From an uncultured Planctomycetota bacterium (lineage in GTDB: Bacteria > Planctomycetota > CAZGEP01), in assembly GCA_964524955.1 (NCBI GenBank), contig CAZGEP010000006.1, positions 1 to 60,890 on the forward strand: a stretch of DNA of 60,890 nucleotides, given 5' to 3'. Each line of letters begins with the position of its first letter. Within the stretch, counting starts at the first letter, position 1. Made by a program: the position numbers and the translations under genes. The notes below the pieces were generated by a model, which was not told the origin of the DNA, ran no database searches, and was given only the letters and a program-made list of their open reading frames with translations. Below are positions 1-12,198 of this stretch, one piece after another.

Positions 1-169
1 TTTGCCTTTTGGGGTCGATATGGAATGAGGGATCTGTGTCGTCATGCTCCGGACAGAGGGTTTTGAAGCCGGAGCCGTTTTTGCGGATTTCCAGATACCG
101 GGAAACGACATCTTCAATCCGGTGGGTCTGTTTAATGCGGTTGATACGGTCCTTGAACGTGAGTTCCAT
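1..169 (-). CDS. CHC2 zinc-finger DNA primase (DnaG-type), 5' part, runs off the window edge
   Basis: Not in the ORF track. Manual translation from ATG at 169 gives MELTFKDRINRIKQTHRIEDVVSRYLEIRKNGSGFKTLCPEHDDTDPSFHIDPQKGK, which has the CPxHxDxxPSF motif of primase zinc-binding domains. Confidence 0.85.
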   Translation of the reverse strand, partial: MELTFKDRINRIKQTHRIEDVVSRYLEIRKNGSGFKTLCPEHDDTDPSFHIDPKRQ

Positions 170-467
170 TATGGATTCTGCCCTTTCTGCCCTTTCGGGC
201 GCTCTGTTCTCGTTTCTCCGCTCTGCGGAGACTGGAAAACATCCGGTCTTTGAGTTTTTCAAGTGTGAATTTCAGCATGGCAGCGTTTACCATGGCGCGG
301 CCTGAGCGAAAGTGCCTGGCGTGGCTCTCTACGCCTTTACCCGTAAAGACAAACTCGCAGTGTCGCTTGTTGCCCTGGTCCCGGACCGTAATCCGGGTAA
401 GCTCATGGCCCATGCTCAGAAGGAATGCTCCTTCGTACAGATCATGGATGTGGATTTGCTGTGTCAC
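132..467 (-). CDS. DUF5659-like small protein of a mobile element
   Basis: ORF 132..554; likely start is GTG at 467 after AGGAGG. DLYEGAFL..GHEL..I......CEFVF pattern. Overlaps the primase start. Confidence 0.6.
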   Translation of the reverse strand: MTQQIHIHDLYEGAFLLSMGHELTRITVRDQGNKRHCEFVFTGKGVESHARHFRSGRAMVNAAMLKFTLEKLKDRMFSSLRRAEKREQSARKGRKGRIHNGTHVQGPYQPH

Positions 468-510
468 CTGTGGATTCACCTCCTTTCTGTGAGTGGATGC
501 GAGCGCCCTA

Positions 511-539
511 TTGATTTGCTTCCCTGTTTGTGGTATAAT
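511..539 (+). promoter_or_regulatory. sigma70-type promoter pointing antisense to the primase operon leader
   Basis: TTGATT (511-516), 17 nt spacer, TATAAT (534-539) with an extended TGn. Confidence 0.6.
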
Positions 540-581
540 GGAAGGTGAAATCAAAAGGGCCTCGGTTCTTTTGGTTATCTG

Positions 582-634
582 GAGCCGTTAAACAGGTCTG
601 GCAGGACTCTGTGGTTTAACGGCTCTTTTTCTTT
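582..634 (+). terminator. intrinsic terminator-like hairpin ending a candidate ~90 nt sRNA
   Basis: Perfect 12-bp stem GAGCCGTTAAAC (582-593) / GTTTAACGGCTC (614-625), followed by TTTTTCTTT. Confidence 0.6.
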
Positions 635-690
635 GATACCCTGTCAAGTGCATTTATTTTATTTCTGCAATTATTTCTGATGTCTCGTAT

Positions 691-707
691 TTTACGATAG
701 TCGTAAA
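691..707. promoter_or_regulatory. palindromic operator candidate for the XRE repressor
   Basis: TTTACGA-TAG-TCGTAAA in the AT-rich divergent intergenic region. Confidence 0.45.
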
Positions 708-792
708 TTTAATCAAGAATAAAATCACTTTTTATTATATAGTGGTATAATGATATCTCCTTTGCATAGCACTTGTTTTACAGGAAACATAA

Positions 793-1149
793 ATGAAAGG
801 CAGAAAATTAAAAGGCTTTGGCGACAGATTAGCAAAACTACGTAAGAGCAAAGGCATGACTCAAGCAGAGCTGGGAAAAAAAGTAGGAGTGTCCTACAGG
901 GTTATCGCATATTACGAACATGAGTCAGGCCAACCACCTGGAGCCATGCTTGTAGACCTTGCAAAAGCCTTGCAAGTATCAGCAGATCAACTACTCGGAA
1001 TTAAGAAAGTTAAGGAAACAGAAGATCCGAAAACTGCTCGTATGGTTAAACGGTTAAAAAGAATCTCCCTTCTCCCCAAACAAGACCAGCAAGCGGTAAT
1101 GAAATTTCTTGATGCTCTTGTCCAAAAACAAACTGCTGAATCGAAATAG
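793..1149 (+). CDS. XRE/Cro-CI family HTH transcriptional regulator
   Basis: FGDRLAKLRKSKGMTQAELGKKVGVS..VIAYYE....P...L..LAKAL.VS.D.LLG. Confidence 0.95.
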   Translation: MKGRKLKGFGDRLAKLRKSKGMTQAELGKKVGVSYRVIAYYEHESGQPPGAMLVDLAKALQVSADQLLGIKKVKETEDPKTARMVKRLKRISLLPKQDQQAVMKFLDALVQKQTAESK

Positions 1150-1278
1150 GCCATCGTTTCCGTACCCCTGAATTCATACGCAACAGATGTTCAGACGAAT
1201 TGATTCCCACCACCCTTTTAGCGGAGTTTTTTATGGCCCGGGAGCCCTTCGCCCGCACCGCTCGCACACGCGCACGCT

Positions 1279-1348
1279 GCCACATAATGAGGTTATCCGA
1301 CGTTGGCCCAACTGCGGCCAACGTCCGATGAACCTCACATTATGTGGC
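1279..1348. repeat. imperfect inverted repeat made of two dif-like (Xer-type) sites
   Basis: GCCACATAATGAGGTTATCCGACGTTGGCC-caactgc-GGCCAACGTCCGATGAACCTCACATTATGTGGC; each arm carries a TTATGT core. Confidence 0.75.
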
Positions 1349-1691
1349 GCTGGAAGATTCCGCTTTTTTTGATTGGTTGTAAAGTGGAGGCGCGCAAACT
1401 CCCAGCACGCGGCCCGAGCGCGAGCGACGCAGGCGAAGGGCTCCTCCGTTACTTTCGTCTTGCTGTGCCATGGCCCGAGCCGGGTGACCGTTTTTGTCGT
1501 ACTGGCGCGACGTGATTCCCCGGTTGGGTGTTCGGGCGCGGTCTGGCCGGTGGAGGAAATGATTCGTCTGCAAGCTGCGCAGCCGATCATATCCTCACCG
1601 GGATAATCGTTTCTGGTGGTCTGCATTGTCCTTTCTTTTCCCTGTCTGGAGCATCACATCCCCGCACAGAGCCGATCCAGTGGCAGGCTTG

Positions 1692-1726
1692 CCGGGCGCG
1701 TCTTTATACTGCAAAGACGCGCCCGG
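1692..1726. repeat. perfect 14-bp inverted repeat with a 7-nt loop
   Basis: CCGGGCGCGTCTTT-atactgc-AAAGACGCGCCCGG. Confidence 0.85.
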
Positions 1727-1835
1727 ACTGCGCCTTCAAGGGGCTGCGATCCAAGATAATCGCATTCCATCAAACATCATAATAATCTGTTTAGCAGAGA
1801 CTTAAAAATTAGTGTCACTTATTTTAACTTATTTT

Positions 1836-2186
1836 TCATTTTATCTGAAGGACAGGCTTCAGCCATTTTATACTTAAATCACGTTCAATTATTAAATACT
1901 GCCCTGCAACCATTTTTTGGGTACAAATTATCGCGCTGCTCTTCTTTAAGCTTGGGTGAATTATTGATGTCCAATTCGATTTCTCGATTGAAACATTCCT
2001 ATCCTCGCACACTTTATCAATAGTAATATTGAGATCTATGTTGTCAATATCAATATACCGTGCAATCCATACAGCTTCATGTTCTAAAATCTTTTTTTGG
2101 GATAATTGATTGTTACAATGATACAGAAATGAAACACACAATGAAATAATACCAATCGTGATAAATATAAGAAATATCTTTTTCAT
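1836..2186 (-). CDS. putative immunity protein for the RHS toxin, with N-terminal hydrophobic anchor
   Basis: AT-rich ORF starting 4 nt after the RHS stop; begins MKKIFLIFITIGIISLCVSFLY. Confidence 0.6.
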   Translation of the reverse strand: MKKIFLIFITIGIISLCVSFLYHCNNQLSQKKILEHEAVWIARYIDIDNIDLNITIDKVCEDRNVSIEKSNWTSIIHPSLKKSSAIICTQKMVAGQYLIIERDLSIKWLKPVLQIK

Positions 2187-2190
2187 ATAG

Positions 2191-3447
2191 TTACTGTCCC
2201 ATTGTAAAACCACTTCCCAATCGAGTAATATCACTCAAATTAACAGACTTACCACATGATTTGCAATCTTCAAAATCTCTCGAAACACCTTCAAATGAGT
2301 CGGTAGAATAAAACTCGCCGAAAGTTATTGTCTCAATAGCTGCATTGTTTACAGCTTGGCACATAGAATCATTTGTCAAACTTGCATTTGGATTACGAAC
2401 CCAATGCCATAATTCATAGCCTATATCATAAGCACCCTGTTGTTCCGTTCCTTCATCATGTTCTGGATCAGCCCAATTAGCCCCCAAGAAAGACGTAGTC
2501 TGTCCGACATCCAATGCTGCAGCGACTATACCATATAGCACATTATTTGGTGCGGTATCTCTTACACATTTGCCGCAAAACCATACAGTATTTGTGCACT
2601 TACGTGTTGCACATCCTTCAACATTTCCTCTATACCAGAAGTCTATATTCATACCTATCTCAGATAATGTCCAAGCGCCATCCCAAGCACCTGTTTGGCT
2701 ATCATCCAAATTATTTAATTGGTTGAATATTCTAATTATGTATTGCCTAAAAGCAGCGGTCACGTCAGGCCCACAATAATCAATACAGGCTTCTGCTTCA
2801 ATTTCCTCAATAAAGTCTTCAGGACTTTGTGGAACAAAAGGATTCTCGGTTAGTCCCAGCGCATCCACCCCACTCATAACAAAATACGCCCTGTACAGAT
2901 TCAATCCATCCACATACCCGATTGGGTCCCGCTGCAGGAAACGTCCCCGACTTGTAGAATACATCCGGTTCCTGTAAAACATAAGATCAGCCTCGGGATC
3001 GTGCCGCCTACCCGTAAACAGATAATAATTCCCAGACAGACTTCCGGTCGTTTCATCACCATCCCACCAGTCACCGTCTCCACCGTCACCCGTATAAACG
3101 GACACAGCGCCATAAGGCTGATAGTTCTTGTACACTTCAATTATACTTCCGGAGGTATCAATTATGGCATGAACAGAATACTGAGTATTATGGAGATAAT
3201 AGAATTGTTCGTCAGTATCAGAGAAATCGTTATCGTCATTCAAGTCAGCCCTGGCAAACACCGGTTCATCGATATACACCCCATACCAGTAATCCCGCTT
3301 CAGGTCTTCATCCGAGTAAACCCGCTCTTCAATCACCCGGTTTCCATCGAGCACATAATACAGCTCAGTTTCCTGCGAACCGGACTGATCTTCATCCGCT
3401 TTTCTGTACACGCGGCGGTTCTGCGCATCGTATGAATACTCACCCAT
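2191..3447 (-). CDS. RHS repeat-associated core protein (orphan, N-terminally truncated) with Ntox44-like C-terminal toxin domain
   Basis: YSYDAQNRR, FTGRRHDPE, YRNRMY, GRFLQRDPIGYVDGLNLY and VDALGL cleavage motif; then NNVLYG..AAALD......GA....D....QGAYDIGY. Confidence 0.9.
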   Translation of the reverse strand: MGEYSYDAQNRRVYRKADEDQSGSQETELYYVLDGNRVIEERVYSDEDLKRDYWYGVYIDEPVFARADLNDDNDFSDTDEQFYYLHNTQYSVHAIIDTSGSIIEVYKNYQPYGAVSVYTGDGGDGDWWDGDETTGSLSGNYYLFTGRRHDPEADLMFYRNRMYSTSRGRFLQRDPIGYVDGLNLYRAYFVMSGVDALGLTENPFVPQSPEDFIEEIEAEACIDYCGPDVTAAFRQYIIRIFNQLNNLDDSQTGAWDGAWTLSEIGMNIDFWYRGNVEGCATRKCTNTVWFCGKCVRDTAPNNVLYGIVAAALDVGQTTSFLGANWADPEHDEGTEQQGAYDIGYELWHWVRNPNASLTNDSMCQAVNNAAIETITFGEFYSTDSFEGVSRDFEDCKSCGKSVNLSDITRLGSGFTMGQ

Positions 3448-3481
3448 GTTTATTTCATGTCCTTTTGTTTCTCATGTTTTC

Positions 3482-4801
3482 TTACTGAGTGGCTTTGGCG
3501 GTTTTCTCCTCTTCCGTGTAGATGACCAGATCATTGTCGTCGATCTTTTTGTCTCCCTTGATCAGGGTGCCGACTGATACTTTTTCCGCAACCTTGGTGA
3601 GCTTGATGGTTCCCTTGTTTACATCGGTTCCACCAACTTCTCCGAGCAGGGCAGCCACGTCATCACCCAGGTCTTCGCCTGTGTCTTCGTTGACGACTTC
3701 GATGCGTTTCATGACATTAAATATCATTCCCGGTTTGAGGCCGATGTTTTTTCCGCCCGCGATCACAATCAGGGTTGTGTCACCTTTTTTGGCGGTCTTG
3801 ACCACATTGGTGCGCAGTTTGGAGTTTTTGATGGTCGGGATGTTGATGATTTCATACACGGCCTTGGCCATGCAGCCCATGATGGCCCGGTCCATCCGCG
3901 CCTTGGTCTTTCTGGAAAATCCCATGCCTCCGGCTCCGGCTTTGCCGCCGCTGGCCTTGGCGCCGCCACCGAACATACCGAACTTGAAGTTGGCCACGCG
4001 ACCGGATCGTTTGACTGAGGCAATCACAACACCGGACTCGGAATCCACGATCTTGAATGTAATGGTTACCCAGGAGTTGGATTTTCCAAAACCGAGCGCA
4101 CCCAGGCCAAAACCTTTTTTGCCGGCTCCGCCGCCTGCGGCTCCAGCGCCCCAGGAGCTGGCATCGGGTACGTATTCATTGACCACAGCATCAATCAGGA
4201 ACTGCGCACCGAGAAGACGTCCGATTTTGGGGGCGCTCTTTTTCCAGACCCGTCCGCTGGCGCCAAAGTCCTGTTCTTTGAGGATGTCGCCCATGGTCTT
4301 CTTGCTTCGTTCCACCAGGGTAAACCGGCTGGTTTTGGCAAATTCAGCCATGAGTGAGGCTTCGAGACCGGCTACCGCAATACCGGCATTGGCGCCGTGC
4401 TTGTTCATCATGCTCTGAACGGAATCCGCCACCTTGAAATCCACAATGCCGAAACGCTGTTTGGGACCGTTGTATGCAGAGTAGTTGATCAGCCACCAGT
4501 AGTCTTCGGCAATGGACTTTCCCTTCAAGTAGTAGGTGTTTTTCTTGTTGTTGTAGTTCATCTTCTTGTCAATGAGCATGACGGACTTGCCTTTGTCAAA
4601 GTAGGGGAGCCACTGGGAGGAAAGAACGGGCTGCGCATCTTCTGTTTTGACCCAGTGAGCCTTGTTGGAGCTGTCGCCCCCTCCGCTTTCGATTTCTGTA
4701 TCGTCTGAACGTCCGCCTCTTCTGTCCGCTTCCAGCGGAGATGTAAATAGAACCGCCACCACTGCCAGCAACCCCATCATCAGATATACATGCTTCTTCA
4801 T
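3482..4801 (-). CDS. CsgG/HfaB-family envelope protein with FlgT-C-like C-terminal domain
   Basis: Signal peptide; RFTLVERS...ILKEQDFG.SGRV....PKIGRLLGAQFLI motif; C-terminal GGKNIGLKPGMIFNV...DTGEDLG. Confidence 0.8.
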   Translation of the reverse strand: MKKHVYLMMGLLAVVAVLFTSPLEADRRGGRSDDTEIESGGGDSSNKAHWVKTEDAQPVLSSQWLPYFDKGKSVMLIDKKMNYNNKKNTYYLKGKSIAEDYWWLINYSAYNGPKQRFGIVDFKVADSVQSMMNKHGANAGIAVAGLEASLMAEFAKTSRFTLVERSKKTMGDILKEQDFGASGRVWKKSAPKIGRLLGAQFLIDAVVNEYVPDASSWGAGAAGGGAGKKGFGLGALGFGKSNSWVTITFKIVDSESGVVIASVKRSGRVANFKFGMFGGGAKASGGKAGAGGMGFSRKTKARMDRAIMGCMAKAVYEIINIPTIKNSKLRTNVVKTAKKGDTTLIVIAGGKNIGLKPGMIFNVMKRIEVVNEDTGEDLGDDVAALLGEVGGTDVNKGTIKLTKVAEKVSVGTLIKGDKKIDDNDLVIYTEEEKTAKATQ

Positions 4802-4999
4802 GAAAACCTCTCCTGCGGCTTGGCCGCAAAAAAATGAATGTACGTGTTGATTGCTTGAAAAAATATACAGATTTATTTTATTTACCGCGCAATTTGAGTC
4901 AAGCTGGAAAAAATTTTTAAAAAGAATTAAAGTTATGGGTTAAGTCTGCCGATTAAATAACAGATACATTTTGTTGCATACTTTTTTTGGATAGCTGAA

Positions 5000-5740
5000 A
5001 TGCAGGAGATAAACGCGGTCCAATCTTTCGCAGGTGGTTATTATAAAACCGGTTATGTTGGAAACAACCCGGAGCGGGATTCGTATGTCTCACAATCCCA
5101 AACCGCGAAAGAGTCACAGGAAAATGAGGCTGAAGCTACCGGAAAACCAGCTGAAGAGTCCAGAAAAAGATCCATCAGCGGCAAGGAACTGACCGAAGAA
5201 GAACAGCAGAAGGTGGAGAGGCTCAAACAACGGGATCGCAAGGTACGCAGTCATGAAAACGCGCATGCAGCTGCCGCAGGTCCGTACAAGCGAGGGGGAG
5301 CGCAGTTCAGCTACAAAACCGGTCCGGACGGAAAGCAGTATGCGGTCAGCGGTAATGTTTCCATTGATATGGGGTCGGAATCCAGCCCTGAGGCTACCAT
5401 TGCCAAGATGAAAACGATTCAGCGTGCAGCGATCGCCCCGCAGGACCCGTCTGCCCAGGACCGGTCTACCTATTCTGCTGCTGTCCGTCGTGAAATGAGC
5501 GCCCGACAGGCATTGCGCGAAGAGGAGCAGCTTGAACAGAAGAAACGGCGGGCAGAGACGTCCGGGGATTCAACAAACGCAACGCATACTTTGGTCATGA
5601 ATCAGTCATCTCCCCTGGCCAGAGCGGATGTTACTGAACCGCAGGAAACAAGGACCTGGGATGCCCAACAATCGTACAACCGCCAGGATATTTCCAGGTC
5701 CGGTCATGGACAGACGGCCCGGCTTGATTTTCAGGGTTGA
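5000..5740 (+). CDS. SprA-related family putative metalloprotease
   Basis: LKQRDRKVRSHENAH, YKTGPDGKQYAVSGNVSID, AAIAPQDPSAQD. Confidence 0.85.
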   Translation: MQEINAVQSFAGGYYKTGYVGNNPERDSYVSQSQTAKESQENEAEATGKPAEESRKRSISGKELTEEEQQKVERLKQRDRKVRSHENAHAAAAGPYKRGGAQFSYKTGPDGKQYAVSGNVSIDMGSESSPEATIAKMKTIQRAAIAPQDPSAQDRSTYSAAVRREMSARQALREEEQLEQKKRRAETSGDSTNATHTLVMNQSSPLARADVTEPQETRTWDAQQSYNRQDISRSGHGQTARLDFQG

Positions 5741-5760
5741 ACACACAAAAGTGATTTTCC

Positions 5761-7017
5761 ATGTGCACTGAGATTTCCCCAACCTATGATGAGATTATGC
5801 AACGTACGGAGCGTTTGGTTTCCACGCACGGTGACGTGGCAACCCGTCTTGATGCGGGGGCAAGCGAAGCCGGCAATCTGCCGCTTCCTTTTGTAGAAAT
5901 TACGGACAGTTCCGTTTCGCTGGACCGCAAACAGATCATGTTGGTAACCGGCGGTGTTCACGGCAGTGAAGAATGCGGACGTGCGGTCGCCATGGCATTC
6001 TGCGAATGGCTGGTTACGCACGGAAGATCTCACCTGAGTACACAATCGTTTATTGTCTGTCCCTGCCTGAATCCGGACGGCGCTTTGAAGAATCAGTCAC
6101 AGACCGGTACCGGTCGAAATATCTACACTTCATGCCGCATCGGCACTTCGGAGACGGATACCGCGGAAGCCGCGGCTGTGCTGAGACTGGTTGATACATA
6201 CCTGCCCGAGTGCTGCGTGGATATTCACGGCCTGGGCGGCGGCGCGGTCGGGGATACAATTTACGTAACACCGGGTCTTTCGGGAAACCTGAGCACTGCC
6301 GTGGGTTTTGACGTAGGGTATGAGATGAGCCGTGAAGCCTCTGCCAGGGGATTTGTACAGCGCGATCCCTATATGCAGCCCGACTATAATAAAACCGAGG
6401 GAGGCATTTCCTGGGTCAAGAAGACTGCGGTAGAACTCAACACGCTGAGCTTTACCGTGGAGTCCAGCGAACACATGCTTCCGATCAACGAATCTGAATC
6501 CAGCGGGCTGTGCCGCATGATCCGGCTGGTACAGATCGGAGAGCGCGCGCAATGGTACCAGCCCTATGCCGGTTATCCAGTGGATATCCTCACGGACAAT
6601 GGGGCGGTAGCCCTGATGCCGCACGGAACCTTTCCAGGAGAACGCAGGCAATCCCGCAGGGAAATTATGACCGCGATTCATGAAGGCGGCATCTGGAATG
6701 TGGAGCGGGATGTCGCCGACCATGCTGCTGGTTTCGATCGCACCGCGACCGCTCGCCTGATCTGTAGAGAGGAGCTCCGATCGTATCCATCCCGCTTTAC
6801 CATCCAGTTGATGCTGGACCGCAGGGCGTGTGTGCAGCAGGTCCGGTTCAACGGATCAGAACTCAATCCAGATCCGATTCACGGATTTAAAGAGCGACTG
6901 GGACCGGAAGGGCGGTTTGTACGGATTCATATCAACCGCAAGCCGAAGTCCGGCGAGAATATCGCAGAGGTCCAGTACAGAATGCCGGTCCAGCCGCACG
7001 ATCCTATGACAGTCTGA
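5761..7017 (+). CDS. M14 family zinc carboxypeptidase-like protein
   Basis: GGVHGSEECG (HxxE), PCLNPDG, DIHG, FTVES. Confidence 0.8.
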   Translation: MCTEISPTYDEIMQRTERLVSTHGDVATRLDAGASEAGNLPLPFVEITDSSVSLDRKQIMLVTGGVHGSEECGRAVAMAFCEWLVTHGRSHLSTQSFIVCPCLNPDGALKNQSQTGTGRNIYTSCRIGTSETDTAEAAAVLRLVDTYLPECCVDIHGLGGGAVGDTIYVTPGLSGNLSTAVGFDVGYEMSREASARGFVQRDPYMQPDYNKTEGGISWVKKTAVELNTLSFTVESSEHMLPINESESSGLCRMIRLVQIGERAQWYQPYAGYPVDILTDNGAVALMPHGTFPGERRQSRREIMTAIHEGGIWNVERDVADHAAGFDRTATARLICREELRSYPSRFTIQLMLDRRACVQQVRFNGSELNPDPIHGFKERLGPEGRFVRIHINRKPKSGENIAEVQYRMPVQPHDPMTV

Positions 7018-7113
7018 AAATAATCAAATATTCCCTTGAAAAAAGGTGTAAAACGGGTACAGTTACCGTTTGACTGTCCTTTATTTTCTGAACTTTTTAT
7101 GGAGGATTTACGA

Positions 7114-7287
7114 ATGGGATGTTGTGACGAACATTCGGAAAAGATGTGCGCGGCGGCCTGCTGTCCCTGTAACCTGGATCTGGAAAAAATCAAGGCTCTT
7201 GTAAAAGACGCCAAGTTCATCTGCAAGGCGTGCGGCCGGGTGGCTGCAGAAGAAAAGAATCTCTGCCAGCCGGTTCCCCTGGACTGA
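7114..7287 (+). CDS. small Cys-rich protein (57 aa)
   Basis: GGAGG RBS at 7101; MGCCDEHSEKMCAAACCPC...FICKACGRVAAEEKNLCQP. Confidence 0.7.
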   Translation: MGCCDEHSEKMCAAACCPCNLDLEKIKALVKDAKFICKACGRVAAEEKNLCQPVPLD

Positions 7288-7317
7288 AGTTTCTGGGGGG
7301 ATGCTCATCCATCATGG

Positions 7318-7854
7318 ATGTGCCGGAAACAAAGAGGGAGGGATTGCAGCTGGACTGGGAGAGCGCTGGCCATGGGCCTGACCCTGCCCCGCCTTCATAT
7401 TGCGGATATCCACCTGGTATACAATCTGCTTGTCGGACTTAAGGAGGTGGATCCCGAGCGTGTGGGTATCAGCGGTCTTTCCGGCGGCGGAACTCTGACG
7501 TACCTGACTGCGGCGTTTGACACCCGGTTCAAGGCTGCAGCCGTGTTCTGTGGAACCGGCAGTTACCAGGATTACGCCATGGACGGCGGATGTGGCATGC
7601 AGGTGGTTCCGGGATGGTTTCCGTACGGCGATACATCGGAAATATTTTCCATGATCGCGCCCCGGCCTCTGCTGGTGGCGCAGGGCAGGCTGGACGCAAC
7701 ATTTAACGTGATCCGGACCGCGGAAATGGTGAACAGGGCTCGGTCGGCCTATAGTGCGGCTGGTGCTCCGCAGCGGATCCAGTTTGAAACGCCTGAACTG
7801 GCGCATGAGTATGACGCGGATCTTGCCGCTGAGTTCTTTCTCCGGTGGATATAG
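7318..7854 (+). pseudogene. alpha/beta hydrolase (acetyl xylan esterase / dienelactone hydrolase-like), N-terminally truncated
   Basis: EVDPERVGISGLSGGG nucleophile elbow, IAPRPLL, C-terminal HEY. No room or RBS for the usual N-terminal half. Confidence 0.6.
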
Positions 7855-7913
7855 CCTGATTGATTCTGAAAAAATTTTGAAGGAAGACCGGTCCAGCCGG
7901 ACAACAAAATAAT

Positions 7914-8347
7914 ATGAAAATGGCTTCAGGAAAAAACATCCTTCACTTGTGTCTGCTGGTTATTCTTTTCTTTTCAGTCACGCTTTCGGCTGCTTCAAAA
8001 ACACACAGACGCATTGCTGCACCTCAACAAACTCGAGTCCCGGAGAACCGACTCAAAACTCACCGCGGACATCTTTCACAAAAAAGCCTGTTCCTGTTTC
8101 TATATCGCATCCTACACGTTGTCTCTTGAAGCCTTTCGGAAATACCTGAAACTGAATTTTTCGGAACCTTGACAAGGAACCCCCACAGTTTATCTGCGAC
8201 GTCAATTACTTTCTCGGGCTCTGCTTTCTGCACAACAAGGAGAAAAAAACAGCCGCGCGGTATTTCAAAAAATGCACCCAGTCTGGAAATGTGAATTCAG
8301 AACAGATTCTCGGTGCAGAATATTTCCTAAAAATAATAAGCAGGTAA
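7914..8347 (+). pseudogene. degraded secreted TPR protein with NlpI-like C-terminus
   Basis: Signal-peptide ORF 7914..8129; a separate downstream segment reads LDKEPPQFICDVNYFLGLCFLHNKEKKTAARYFKKCTQSGNVNSEQILGAEYFLKIISR*. Confidence 0.45.
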
Positions 8348-8430
8348 TTAATTTCCATCTTGACGATTTCAAACAGACAATATAATAACCAGTATAGGTT
8401 GCTGGTTGAAATCATCGCCTCTACGGCGCT

Positions 8431-10419
8431 ATGTTCCCTTTCTTTTTCCGGAGCCGGAAAATGCCTCCTGTGCTGATCGGAGGACATCCCTTTGAAAGAA
8501 ATAAAGACGGTAAACCCATGGTCAACATGGGAGAAGTCTTTCCGGCTCACAATACCGTTGTCTTTGGAAACGGTACGCACCAGATCGTCCGCGAAGACTA
8601 CATCGACTACCTGAACAACGAACGAGCCAAAAAGAACCTCGCCTGTCTTTCCTTTGAAAAAGAAATCATTCTGACCCGTTCCTGTGTGGATCTGGTAGTC
8701 AGAGGAGACATCCTTTACATCCGGCCCAAACCCACGGAAAAGGGCATGAAGATGGCATTTGAAGCCGACCGAATGCTCCAGGAGATCGTACCGGAACAGC
8801 GGATTAAATTCATGGGCCTGGACGATCCCTTCATTCGCCAGGCCATCAAGAAACGCGGTGAACTCTGGCGAATCAGCTCGCTGCCGCGAACCCGGGATGG
8901 AAAAAGGCAGCTGATCCGTAATTCCAAGATTCATATTCAGCACCGCAAGATGTATTATCACAATGCAGTGACTGGAACCAAGTACCTGACCTACTGGGAA
9001 TTTGAAAAACTGGGACGGCTCAAGCCGGCCACTGTTGCCCGCTGTCTCAAAGAGATCGCGGTCTATCTTCAGTCAAAGAATCACATCAACCAGCCCGAAC
9101 TGGTTCTCTTCAAAGCCCGGGAAAAAGTATTTACCAAGAAATACCTGAAGTATGACTACGCTGACCTGCCCCCCAAGGCTGTTATGACAATCTATACGCA
9201 GCTGCGAACGCGATTCCGGGAAGCGGTTGAGTCCCGCGATTTTCTCAAAGACGACGCAAATAACCAGAAGTGGTGTGAGCAGATGCTTAACGCCCTGGTC
9301 AAGCGCAATGACGAGGTCTCCGAGGAACTTTCTCTGGGCCTCTGCCCGGAATTTTTTATGTACATTAAGTGGTTTCCTGGTGCCTACATCATTGAGGGGG
9401 AACTGGTCTTTGATCCGATTTTTGATAAAAAAGAAACCATGCCTCACGACAGTGAACTCGCAAGACTCTGCGATGAAAAGGTCAAAAAGCTGATTTTCAA
9501 CTACATGCGGGAATTCAGCAAAATTGAATATATAAATATTGGCCGGATCATTGAATCTGCTTCCAAGCGTATAAAGATTCCGGGACGGCGGGATGTATAT
9601 ATTGCAGTGATCAAAATTCCTGAAAAGAACGAAGAGGTCATCAAGTTCATCCGCATGCAGAAATTCGGTATCAAAGAGTACCTTGAAGACGGGCATAGTC
9701 TGTTCAGCGCCATGGTCAAGTCTGAAAAATACATCGAATATGTACTCGACCGCCATGCCGGGTGCAAGCAGCTGGGAATGAACCTGCTTCCTTTCCGAAC
9801 CGCCAAGGTCAGTGAAAAGTTTCACGGCGTAACCATCGGAACCAATTACATTGAGCGCAACTATGTACACGGATTTGCAACCGACAAGCTCTCTGTAACC
9901 AAACTCAAAACTGAAAAGTACTGCCACCGTTTCTTCGAGCTGCTCGGGCAGGCCGCAGCCATTAACCTGGTCGTGGGAAGATCCTTTAATAAGCGAGCCC
10001 TCTTTGACGACGGGGATGAAGTCGTCCTCGAAGACATAAAAGGAATGCCCAGGGAGATCCTCGTGTCCAGCATTACCGGCAGCTTTGAAGACTACAGAAC
10101 AGAGATGGACAGGTATGCAGATCAATACGCTGTTCCGATCAACAAACGTCGTAAGTTATTAGGAAAGCGCCTCTTCCGGAAAGCAGCAGATACATACATC
10201 CTGTCGCTGGAAAACAATCTCCTGGAAATAAAAAAGCATTACAGAGAAAGACAACGGGCCTTTGACATGCTTTTTCACGACCGGGAAAATACAGCAGAGA
10301 GTTTTCGCTATAAATGGGAACAGGTACTGAACCGGCTGGACAGGACCAATGCCCATGCCCTTTCGCAAAGTGTTCGCCAGCATATTGACGAGTACACAAC
10401 TGCAAACGGCCGGTCATAG
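8431..10419 (+). CDS. hypothetical protein (662 aa), no family recognised
   Basis: Long uninterrupted ORF with protein-like composition; start could be 8461. Confidence 0.85.
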   Translation: MFPFFFRSRKMPPVLIGGHPFERNKDGKPMVNMGEVFPAHNTVVFGNGTHQIVREDYIDYLNNERAKKNLACLSFEKEIILTRSCVDLVVRGDILYIRPKPTEKGMKMAFEADRMLQEIVPEQRIKFMGLDDPFIRQAIKKRGELWRISSLPRTRDGKRQLIRNSKIHIQHRKMYYHNAVTGTKYLTYWEFEKLGRLKPATVARCLKEIAVYLQSKNHINQPELVLFKAREKVFTKKYLKYDYADLPPKAVMTIYTQLRTRFREAVESRDFLKDDANNQKWCEQMLNALVKRNDEVSEELSLGLCPEFFMYIKWFPGAYIIEGELVFDPIFDKKETMPHDSELARLCDEKVKKLIFNYMREFSKIEYINIGRIIESASKRIKIPGRRDVYIAVIKIPEKNEEVIKFIRMQKFGIKEYLEDGHSLFSAMVKSEKYIEYVLDRHAGCKQLGMNLLPFRTAKVSEKFHGVTIGTNYIERNYVHGFATDKLSVTKLKTEKYCHRFFELLGQAAAINLVVGRSFNKRALFDDGDEVVLEDIKGMPREILVSSITGSFEDYRTEMDRYADQYAVPINKRRKLLGKRLFRKAADTYILSLENNLLEIKKHYRERQRAFDMLFHDRENTAESFRYKWEQVLNRLDRTNAHALSQSVRQHIDEYTTANGRS

Positions 10420-10426
10420 TTTTAGC

Positions 10427-10454
10427 TTGACTTTATGCACACTCCGGATATAGT
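10427..10454 (+). promoter_or_regulatory. sigma70-type promoter of the BMC operon
   Basis: TTGACT-16 nt-TATAGT, about 55 nt upstream of pduL. Confidence 0.5.
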
Positions 10455-10507
10455 AGAACCCTTCAAAGATCTGTTACGAATAAAACCCATTTTGAACGAT
10501 TCTGATT

Positions 10508-11260
10508 ATGGTGAATGAGAAAGGTTTAGCATCGTATTGTCAGGACTGCGGTTTATGTTCAGTGGATAAACCTGCGCCTGACTATTCCAGCGCATCCGAT
10601 AACGGCAGCAATGACCTCGCGGATATCATTTCCAGGGAAATTCTCCGCAGCCTCAAGCAGGAACCCGCAGCAGACCCCGGATCCAAAACAATTCCCATTG
10701 GGGTGTCCAACCGCCATGCACATTTGACGGAAAAGACATTTAAATATCTCTTTGGCGATGATACGGAACTGAGCGTGTATCGCGAGTTGTACCAGGAAGG
10801 TGAATTCGCCTCTGAACAGACCATTACGGTAGCCGGAAACAAGATGCGGGCCATTCAGAACCTGCGGATTCTCGGCCCCTTGCGGAAATACGACCAGGTC
10901 GAACTTTCCCTGACCGATGCCGTTCAGATCGGCATCAATCCGCCGATTAAGAATTCAGGCGATCTGGCCGGCGGCGCGCCGCTGACACTGATTGGCCCCA
11001 AACGCTCGCTGTACATTGAAGAATGTGCGATTATCGCCAACCGCCACATCCATATGACTCACCGGGATGCAGATGCGTTCGGCGTAGCGGACGGCGATTT
11101 CTGCAAAATCCGTGTGGGCGGTGAAAAGGGAATTATCTTTGAGAACGTACTGATTCGTATCAACGACGACTGGAAACTTCAACTGCACCTGGACACAGAT
11201 GACGCGAATGCTGCGAACATCCGCTGTTCCATGTCAGCGGAATTTTACGGAAAGATGTAG
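10508..11260 (+). CDS. pduL: phosphate propanoyltransferase (PTAC) with N-terminal encapsulation peptide
   Basis: IPIGVSNRHAHL, LRILGPLR..DQVELSLTD, IIANRHIHMT, LHLDTDDANA. Confidence 0.95.
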   Translation: MVNEKGLASYCQDCGLCSVDKPAPDYSSASDNGSNDLADIISREILRSLKQEPAADPGSKTIPIGVSNRHAHLTEKTFKYLFGDDTELSVYRELYQEGEFASEQTITVAGNKMRAIQNLRILGPLRKYDQVELSLTDAVQIGINPPIKNSGDLAGGAPLTLIGPKRSLYIEECAIIANRHIHMTHRDADAFGVADGDFCKIRVGGEKGIIFENVLIRINDDWKLQLHLDTDDANAANIRCSMSAEFYGKM

Positions 11261-11267
11261 AAGCGCT

Positions 11268-11555
11268 ATGCAATTCGGCAAAGTCACTGGATCTATTGTA
11301 TCAACCAGAAAATCCGAGAATATTACGGGCAGGCGGCTGCTGGTGGTTGAGCATGTGGACGAAAACCTGAAAACGGCCGGCAAAACCTATGCCTGTGTGG
11401 ACTCGGTGGGTGCCGGGATCGGCGATATTGTTCTCTGCTGCTCATCGTCTTCGGCCCGAAAAACCGTCCAGACCAAAGACACATGTACGGACAACACGGC
11501 CGTGGCAATTGTAGACATGATTTCCTGCAGCGGAAAAGATATTTACAGAAAATAA
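11268..11555 (+). CDS. BMC vertex protein (BMC-P, EutN/CcmL family)
   Basis: MQFGKVTGSIVSTRK...DSVGAGIGDIVL...SSARK...VAIVD. Confidence 0.92.
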   Translation: MQFGKVTGSIVSTRKSENITGRRLLVVEHVDENLKTAGKTYACVDSVGAGIGDIVLCCSSSSARKTVQTKDTCTDNTAVAIVDMISCSGKDIYRK

Positions 11556-11588
11556 TTGTTGCACACAGAAGAGGTATCCGCATTGAAT

Positions 11589-11894
11589 ATGGTTTCACTC
11601 GAAAAAATCATTAAACTGGTTTCCACCGGCGTGGTCCGGGAGCTCCACAAACAGGGTGTTCAGGTGGTTTCCGGAAACGCTGAAATCATACCTGCGGACA
11701 GTTCAGCCAGCGGCATGAGCGTAAAGACAGAAAAAATCGACATGAGCAGTTACAAGACCCCGGTGCTTACGGAGCAGCATCTGTCCCGACTCCACGAGCT
11801 GACCGGTACGGTAGTCGTTCCCCGCGGCACGGTTATTACGCCCAAGGCCAGGGAAGCGATCAAGGCAAAGAAACTATACATACGGTTTGAATAA
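11589..11894 (+). CDS. small BMC-associated protein with N-terminal encapsulation-peptide-like helix
   Basis: LEKIIKLVSTGVVREL, then VLTEQHL...VVVPRGTVITPKAREAIK. Confidence 0.75.
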   Translation: MVSLEKIIKLVSTGVVRELHKQGVQVVSGNAEIIPADSSASGMSVKTEKIDMSSYKTPVLTEQHLSRLHELTGTVVVPRGTVITPKAREAIKAKKLYIRFE

Positions 11895-11919
11895 ATTTTC
11901 TGTTCAATTGGAGGTGAAC

Positions 11920-12198
11920 ATGGACAAAGTAACGCTTGGGTTTGTAGAAACCCGTGGAAACACCGGTTCGGTTATGGCCATTGATGCCATGCTGAAAACA
12001 GCGGATGTCGAACTGGTGAAGAAGGTCGGCATCGGCGGCGGCTATGTAACGGCCGTTGTGCGCGGCGAAGTCGGTGCAGTCAAGTCCTCTGTGGAAGCGG
12101 GCGCAGAATTCGCTGCCAGAGTGGGAGAGCTGGTTTGCGCAAATGTAATCCCATCCGCGCACCAGGATGTATTTAAACTAATCGGAATCAGCAAATAG
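11920..12198 (+). CDS. BMC hexamer shell protein (BMC-H)
   Basis: LGFVETRG...AIDAMLKTADV...IGGGYVTAVVRGEVGAVK; GGAGG RBS. Confidence 0.95.
   Translation: MDKVTLGFVETRGNTGSVMAIDAMLKTADVELVKKVGIGGGYVTAVVRGEVGAVKSSVEAGAEFAARVGELVCANVIPSAHQDVFKLIGISK

Follow-up and report, generated by a model that had tools for sequence, protein, structure and literature searches.

Positions 1-3447 of the contig CAZGEP010000006.1, from the assembly GCA_964524955.1 of an uncultured Planctomycetota bacterium, are probably part of one unit of a family of modular mobile elements that bear the variable toxin tip of an RHS protein. The window analysed here is the whole of this contig (C6, positions 1-60890) in an assembly (G000) of 379 contigs that is 91% complete, and we read its first 3447 nt as roughly the first 40%, the toxin-proximal part, of one element unit. 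On the minus strand the parts of the unit follow one another as an RHS core-end piece, a toxin tip, a candidate immunity gene, a structured non-coding block, a divergent repressor, a small protein, a primase and recombinases. The same string of genes recurs in relatives, at a fixed position and in a fixed orientation within toxin loci, flanked by core-end repeats and in some loci as tandem units. From this anatomy we infer that the element replicates as a circle, that its recombinases make the join to a toxin gene and that the tip is its own, the ownership of the tip and the mechanism of integration both being likely. More broadly, it is quite plausible that C-terminal displacement in Rhs, CdiA and related toxins is the work of a widespread, undescribed family of repressor-controlled, self-replicating episomes with Xer-like recombinases, which ranges from bacteria of the Planctomycetes-Verrucomicrobia-Chlamydiae (PVC) group to Burkholderiales. 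Such an episome would integrate at the core-end codons, re-arm the gene with its own tip and antidote and leave the old tip as an orphan, and the block would be its origin or a folded site for recombination or transfer.

A sequence-only reading of this DNA had reported a CHC2 primase gene at the window start, a DUF5659-like gene overlapping it, a divergent XRE repressor, a structured non-coding block and an RHS-core toxin-immunity pair, and all five were recovered (Table 1). The open reading frame (ORF) at 2-262(-) matched the CHC2 zinc ribbon PF01807 over residues 37-87 at 43.9 bits (cut-off 24.9), and the primase start aligned with the N-termini of the 895-1061 aa primases of relatives. The objection raised beforehand, that this might be the housekeeping dnaG, fails, since dnaG was found on another contig (C100; 121.7 bits, 637-aa frame). 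The full-length primases of relatives combine the zinc ribbon with the DnaG catalytic core (DNAG_N) and a Toprim domain (Toprim_2), and match solved DnaG primases, for example 2au3 at E 7e-26. Their C-terminal half, in which no solved relative was found by sequence, carries Walker-type motifs that were read from the sequences and form a P-loop tail.

The 3' end of the small gene overlaps the region of the primase ATG by 38 nt. Its product carries the motifs IHIHDLYEGAFLL and AMLKFTxEKLKDRMF and gave no Pfam match even at E<=10; the label 'DUF5659-like' is nevertheless fair because 7 of the 15 aligned members of its family match DUF5659 (PF18903), at a best E of 1e-5. The protein is rare, with four clusters among 5.8 billion proteins, one of them the window's own, and had no match in the viral collection. 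An AlphaFold2 model (mean confidence, pLDDT, 83.4) predicts a beta-alpha-beta-beta-alpha arrangement with a long helix. Foldseek returned nothing for this model at E<=0.001 (the best hits were KH domains at E 0.075), and VIA-align gave a best Z of only 4.0.

Searches with the small protein yielded locus L014, eight metagenome contigs and six further genomes of the phylum, which places the protein in 7 of 401 phylum genomes including G000, often with three to four copies per genome. The nearest genomes available for comparison share only the phylum with G000, and a DNA search with positions 1-3480 gave matches in 2 of 41 genomes, G000 itself and, in the RHS core only, G015. The gene string held in common by the relatives consists of an RstR-like repressor, the small DUF5659-related protein, a CHC2-Toprim primase and one to three Xer-like tyrosine recombinases. 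The CHC2 primase comes after the small gene in all eight metagenome loci and in L014, and tyrosine recombinases, one to three of them, come directly after the primase in all ten modules in which a full-length primase (that of C195 lacks its N-terminus) is followed by at least 1.2 kb of sequence (L014, L042, L047, L048, L049, C195, L053, two in L054, and L055). Two further loci, L050 and L051, have less than 0.8 kb downstream, with another small ORF first, and were left out of this count; in L056 a recombinase lies 3.5 kb beyond the primase. For the recombinase next to the primase, the best match was the XerC subfamily NF002331 of NCBIfam, with 192-295 bits in four PVC loci and 491 bits (cut-off 371) in Ralstonia. 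The sequence-only reading had expected XerC/D-like recombinases, a Toprim domain and an ATPase left of position 1; this holds in the relatives, with recombinases in 10 of 10 modules, whereas the window's own copy starts at the contig end.

The module regularly lies just past the tip and candidate immunity gene of an RHS gene or, in Paraburkholderia, of a CdiA-type gene. An orphan core-end piece follows the recombinases in eight of the ten modules with enough downstream sequence, and on the repressor side a same-strand RHS gene or piece lies within 6 kb in 9 of the 11 evaluable loci of the phylum (the window, L041, L042, L046, L047, L049, L050, L051 and L052; the flank was too short for scoring in L036, L044, L014 and the eight metagenome loci). 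All three modules of the complete genome G007 stand directly after RHS genes, three of about ten long ones, in a genome with only 13 Rhs-core matches in 9.3 Mb. The most complete arrangement is that of L047, in which an intact RHS gene (2074+ aa) with its tip is followed by two genes, the repressor, the small gene, the primase, two recombinases, a terminator hairpin and an orphan that consists of a core piece with another tip and an immunity gene. A core-end direct repeat of 367 nt at 88% identity is present there in the RHS gene and again just past the recombinases; by eye, identity is about 96% over its first 290 nt and about 70% thereafter. L042 likewise has a core-end repeat, of 118+ nt, and RHS pieces at both sides. 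Within G000 itself, contig C195 carries a second, decayed module with RHS pieces at both ends; its primase lacks the N-terminus and bears a frameshift, and behind the primase come two recombinases and an Rpn-like gene.

Beyond the phylum, a tblastn search with a primase found 32 plasmid records that cover at least 80% of the query, Burkholderiales megaplasmids being among the carriers. In all four proteobacterial records inspected, from the 12 top matches listed, the module sits inside a polymorphic-toxin locus. The Ralstonia locus (L053) reads RHS, immunity gene, RstR-like repressor, primase, XerC and orphan; in Janthinobacterium (L055) the module also lies within a polymorphic-toxin locus; and in Paraburkholderia (L054) two tandem units occupy a CdiA/filamentous haemagglutinin (FHA) locus. 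Each XerC of L054 is followed by a pre-toxin piece and then by a different toxin, an ADP-ribosyltransferase in the first case and an HNH nuclease in the second. The two pieces resemble each other (88%) more closely than they resemble the main gene (73%), a sign that they may move with the element. In Caballeronia (L056) two tandem units share 100% identity over a stretch that starts within the toxin gene, takes in the tip and the immunity gene and runs on into the module. Identity between the L056 orphan and the main toxin gene has a sharp onset at TTGGGGCTGTACTATTAC, which encodes the Rhs core-end motif (LGLYYYKARMY), and the sequence upstream is unrelated; the point looks like the boundary of the unit, a crossover region and the trace of a recent event.

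The tandem units bear directly on a different explanation, in which an independent integrative element uses toxin loci as a landing site, for instance at the start of an orphan core piece, and the tip and immunity gene are host DNA. We regard this as rather unlikely, as host-owned tips are hard to reconcile with the perfect identity of the Caballeronia units from the toxin gene interior through tip, immunity gene and module, or with Paraburkholderia pieces that resemble each other more than the main gene, and because in the window the border between foreign and non-RHS DNA falls where the core piece starts and not at the block. It has in its favour that orphan arrays without a module exist, that about seven of the roughly ten long RHS genes of G007 have none, and that Ruhe et al. 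2016 (PMC4927057) had already described integrase and transposase genes between orphan modules.

Several observations weigh against a tip-carrying element, and some of them speak for host-owned tips at the same time. In G097 a pair of elements with 91% identity have unrelated tips, which fits a host-owned tip as well as an exchange of cargo. On the repressor side, L043 has other genes in place of RHS and L048 has toxin-antitoxin genes and no RHS, and after the recombinases of L049 only a 47-nt RHS-like remnant was found. The core-end repeats (118-560 nt) would also allow homologous recombination, so that the recombinases may only resolve multimers. The recombinases of the present copy are inferred because its left flank is not in the assembly: position 1 is the contig end, which makes that flank unreadable here, and no contig of the same assembly overlaps the first 486 bases. 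The present copy is not fused to an RHS body, as a stop codon stands eight codons before its ATG, and 35 nt upstream of the orphan core ORF a CsgG-like gene has its 3' end. No circular form, excision junction or empty site was seen; for positions 1-6000 the comparison covered assembled contigs of four public runs, in which starts, ends and circles are not visible. Lastly, full-length relatives of the primase in IMG/VR, only two among the best 80 of 164, stand in phage-like contexts with no recombinases or RHS nearby.

We nevertheless favour an element that carries its tip, and the arrangement of its parts suggests how it might work. The repressor would silence the primase operon, an antisense RNA possibly helping, and once the operon is on the element would replicate as a circle. 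The circle would next be linked by the recombinases to a resident rhs (or cdiA) gene, within the coding sequence of its conserved core end. This join would fuse the element's tip and immunity gene to the resident toxin body and would displace the old tip downstream as an orphan, with the element between the two, and repeated joins would build arrays of the form tip-element-tip. The sequence-only reading had proposed that the element captures and delivers RHS tips; delivery is supported by comparative anatomy and is unproven, and capture is conjectural.

A resident, domesticated device that switches the tips of rhs loci by shufflon-like inversion or deletion, worked by the recombinases and immobile between genomes, was also considered. 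Inverted orphan core pieces do lie near the module (in L047, 924-1069 is 99% identical to 4599-4744 in inverted orientation), and L041 has RHS pieces placed head to head. Such a device is, in our judgement, highly improbable given that the module has the features of a replicon, namely a repressor, a P-loop primase and a possible antisense RNA, and that its spread is patchy, with 7 of 401 genomes of the phylum as carriers and yet a presence in Betaproteobacteria. Several copies, decayed ones included, are found per genome, and the stretch occurs at high multiplicity across habitats, which also counts against an immobile switch. In run X1, which comes from the source mat sample, the conserved modules (primase start, control region, block and RHS core) have a summed contig depth of 46-111, the repressor and tip of this copy 7-11 and the adjacent backbone 2-4; these depths are sums over all organisms and not copy numbers.

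Table 1. Features of positions 1-3447 of the window, in order of position.
Feature	Position	Strand	Basis or remark
CHC2 (DnaG-type) primase start, first 56 codons	2..169	-	likely ATG 169-167; gene leaves contig at position 1
Small conserved protein, 111 aa	132..467	-	GTG start; GGAGGTG 9 nt upstream; alignments to relatives
Divergent control region	468..792		between small gene and repressor
XRE/RstR-family repressor gene	793..1149	+	HTH_3 50.2 bits; NCBIfam NF041951
Conserved GC-rich multi-branched structured block	1199..1835		folding, C368 identity, run contigs
Candidate immunity gene, 116 aa, hydrophobic N-terminus	1836..2186	-	ATG 2186; ORF open to 2234; 4 nt after toxin stop
Variable C-terminal toxin tip, Cys-rich	2191..2879	-	motifs CGP, DIDFWYRG, CVRDTxPNN, EQxGAYDIGY conserved
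RHS core-end piece, ~189 aa, starts orphan ORF, without RHS body	2880..3447	-	TIGR03696 at 2890-3123

The toxin end of the unit has the form of an orphan module, in which an Rhs-associated core domain, of the kind that ends in a DPxGL-type motif, leads into a variable tip and the N-terminal body is absent. The 418-aa ORF at 2191-3447(-) matched the Rhs_assc_core family TIGR03696 at 44.7 bits (cut-off 32.5) over residues 109-186. Contigs of other runs diverge from the window at 2879, which is the border between core and tip. The tip itself has only two relatives among 5.8 billion proteins, and beyond the core nothing was matched in Pfam, NCBIfam or PHROGs. A language-model search pointed to Ntox44 with a score of 0.92, which we take only as a lead, and the AlphaFold2 model of the tip was too poor for a structure search (pLDDT 56.9). 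The candidate immunity protein had no family match in Pfam or NCBIfam.

Beyond the orphan module come backbone genes: 3482-4801(-) encodes a CsgG-like lipoprotein, 5000-5740(+) a SprA-related protein and 5761-7017(+) an M14 carboxypeptidase-like protein. At 3434/3435 the contigs of three runs (X1, X2 and X4) turn from the window into one common other sequence, which is absent from the metagenome-assembled genome G000 itself, and the window continues YD-repeat-like codons (GEYSYD) for 12 bases beyond this point of departure. An empty site had been expected near 3450-3480; the contigs of other runs do depart close by, and the empty site itself was not found, there being no kin closer than phylum level to compare with. 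The RHS bodies of the same genome end at contig edges (C116, C158 and C247). The element may have integrated here at a secondary site, a deletion may have followed later, or the junction with the CsgG-like gene may be chimeric; on the backbone side, the X1 contigs leave 3601-3800 uncovered.

The last of these possibilities leads to the suggestion that the window copy is a dead remnant, or an assembly chimera that joins an element to the CsgG-like backbone, and that nothing is active here. The contig starts inside the primase gene, element-specific X1 contigs have about 2.2-2.6 times the depth of backbone contigs, and decayed relatives (C195 and C358) are present in the same genome. Even so we rate a remnant or chimera as very unlikely, since all ORFs visible within 1-3447 are intact and complete genomes and plasmids show the parts in the same order, so that the association itself is no artefact.

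The repressor was matched by the RstR family NF041951 at 81.5 bits, which just passes the cut-off of 80, and its Ralstonia counterpart reached 74.8 bits. It occupies an exchangeable slot at about 648-1198. Contig C368 of the same genome (L003) is an alternative allele, 99% identical to the window over 487-650 and 98% over 1199-1471, in which the slot (165-1374 of C368) is filled by a different XRE gene, a PIN-like gene and a gene for a 63-aa protein. This allele points either to a second copy in the genome or to coexisting variants of the element, two in number, in the sample. Alternative joints from 647/648 to 1197-1200 were also found in three contigs of run X1, and three G015 copies repeat the pattern of conserved, variable and conserved sequence around the repressor.

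Between the repressor and the immunity gene, positions 1150-1835 are non-coding, with a GC content of about 0.6 against 0.49 for the genome. This interval gave folding z scores of -7.98 on the plus strand and -8.72 on the minus strand, with none of 20 shuffles as good, and the predicted elements of the block within it comprise a 33-nt arm pair (1241-1273/1412-1444) and hairpins at 1279-1347 and 1692-1726. It is 98% identical in C368 and has the highest summed contig depth in run X1, and pieces of it and of the primase start were found in salt-lake and marine-sediment runs. No look-alike was found elsewhere in the same genome except in C368 and, as one hairpin, in C358; a pseudogene and a repeat were considered for the block and rejected. 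BLAST found no sequence match between the block and those of relatives; a boundary motif, TTCCCNCCRNCCC, is shared with them, as noticed by eye only. The positional analogue in G015, present in three copies, also has a multi-branched fold, with compensatory changes at 16 of 84 predicted pairs.

The block sits between two convergent transcription units, that of the toxin and immunity gene and that of the repressor, and is conserved as strongly as the replication genes. Our tentative first choice for it is a replication origin or another cis site for replication, recombination or transfer. A transcriptional insulator comes behind this as a possibility, a structured RNA is possible to the same degree, and some other role is distinctly unlikely. 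Rfam had no family at E<=1 across 1-5200, and no tRNA was found in 1-12000. An integron attC site was considered and, on the sequence tests applied, rejected, as the slot boundaries (647/648 and 1197-1200) are without the R''/R' GTTRRRY motif, the block resembles nothing else in the genome apart from the allele C368, and IntI is encoded elsewhere, on C269. That contig carries an intact integron integrase at 2720-3649(-), at 407 bits on TIGR02249, above the cut-off. In another locus, L043 (G015:C261), a 3.3-kb insert of other genes at 2822-6087 lies between two conserved non-coding blocks, where L042 has 156 nt, and these blocks may flank a second cargo slot.

The control region between the small gene and the repressor has the appearance of a divergent regulatory region. 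The best sigma-70-like site is at 511-539(+), TTGATT-17-TATAAT with a TG, at 10 of 12 matches, and a promoter-like site is present on the other strand at 716-689(-). An RNA of 80-90 nt with two hairpins and a U tract is predicted at 545-632(+) (-38.1 kcal/mol, z -6.0), and would be antisense to the leader of the operon of the small gene and primase. Taken with its promoter (511-632, plus strand), this predicted RNA resembles a countertranscript of plasmid copy control.

Further rearrangements and repeats were noted around RHS pieces. Contig C358 corresponds to C195 1-1393 joined to C195 6009-6167, a 4.6-kb deletion that removes the primase and recombinases; at about 1372-1378 a Zn-finger (DUF6431-like) ORF runs, by way of some seven shared bases, into the final 30 codons of a recombinase. 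Rpn/YhgA-like (Transposase_31) genes lie repeatedly just upstream of orphan RHS core pieces (C195 271-1425, C358 244-1404, C7 56108-56301 and L049 13333-14388), and in L049 they flank the whole segment of tip and module as direct repeats. A 103-nt element with terminal inverted repeats, resembling a miniature inverted-repeat transposable element (MITE), has identical copies at C195 7320-7422, C26 28128-28230 and C38 17705-17807, one of which interrupts an RHS core piece. A 54-nt sequence (C358 1-54) recurs at the ends of at least 12 other contigs at 97-100% identity and probably marks where a high-copy repeat ends, one at which the assembly breaks.

The element family could be the long-sought vehicle by which polymorphic toxins exchange their tips. 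It would explain orphan arrays that are interleaved with 'integrase' genes, breaks of assemblies at toxin loci and the spread of toxin-immunity pairs between distant bacteria. A circular intermediate with a core fragment and a tip was proposed in the model section of Jackson et al. 2009 (PMC2935791); as set out there, the stable circle had no replicon or recombinase to point to, and the element family supplies both and is located just where the model would require it. Recombination genes near such loci appear in portions of several later papers, as integrase-like genes that accompany Rhs in bacteria of the bee gut (Steele et al. 2017, PMC5727410), as integrase and transposase genes between orphan CdiA modules (Ruhe et al. 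2016), and as XerC/D beside polyimmunity loci (Zhang et al. 2012). A text search of Poole et al. 2011 (PMC3150448) found no integrase, transposase or recombinase, and full-text searches of the literature, supplements apart, gave no published description of a primase and Xer module as a carrier of tips. The orphan Rhs/CdiA-CT modules of the displacement model, as presented in the pertinent parts of four papers (PMC2935791, PMC3967940, PMC5727410, PMC4927057), are alike in having a core fragment, tip and immunity gene without the body, in arrays downstream of a full-length gene, in core-end repeats and in the proposed circular donor. In those parts the associated integrase and transposase genes are unspecified, whereas here each tip has a defined module for replication, regulation and recombination. 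Because the element occurs in culturable soil Burkholderiales, including Caballeronia with its two freshly duplicated identical units, the question of the vehicle is directly testable. Non-pathogenic carriers that can be grown are Caballeronia sp. SBC1/SBC2, Paraburkholderia sp. PREW-6R and Janthinobacterium lividum HAMBI_1919.

Islands that target tRNA genes, and P4-like satellites, integrate at a gene's 3' end, for which they bring a substitute. The present elements likewise have a recombinase by the attachment region, a copy of the target's 3' sequence that gives direct repeats, and a primase and repressor. In contrast to those islands, the replacement end is here deliberately different, since it supplies another toxin tip and the matching antidote, there are often two or three recombinases, which are Xer-like, and no capsid-hijacking or cos functions were seen. 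A P4-like or phage-inducible chromosomal island (PICI) satellite was itself rejected as an identity, as the complete units L047, L042 and L054 have no genes for capsid redirection or packaging and the attachment region lies in a toxin gene. The RS region of CTX-phi comprises rstR, rstA and rstB, has heteroimmune rstR alleles, and is integrated by XerCD through a folded site. Its layout is matched here by a divergent repressor of the RstR family, whose exchangeable slot has conserved sequence on either side, by a structured non-coding region past the repressor and by Xer-type recombination. Unlike CTX-phi, which uses an HUH protein and has phage structural genes, the elements described here lack such structural genes and bring a DnaG-type primase with a P-loop and recombinases of their own.

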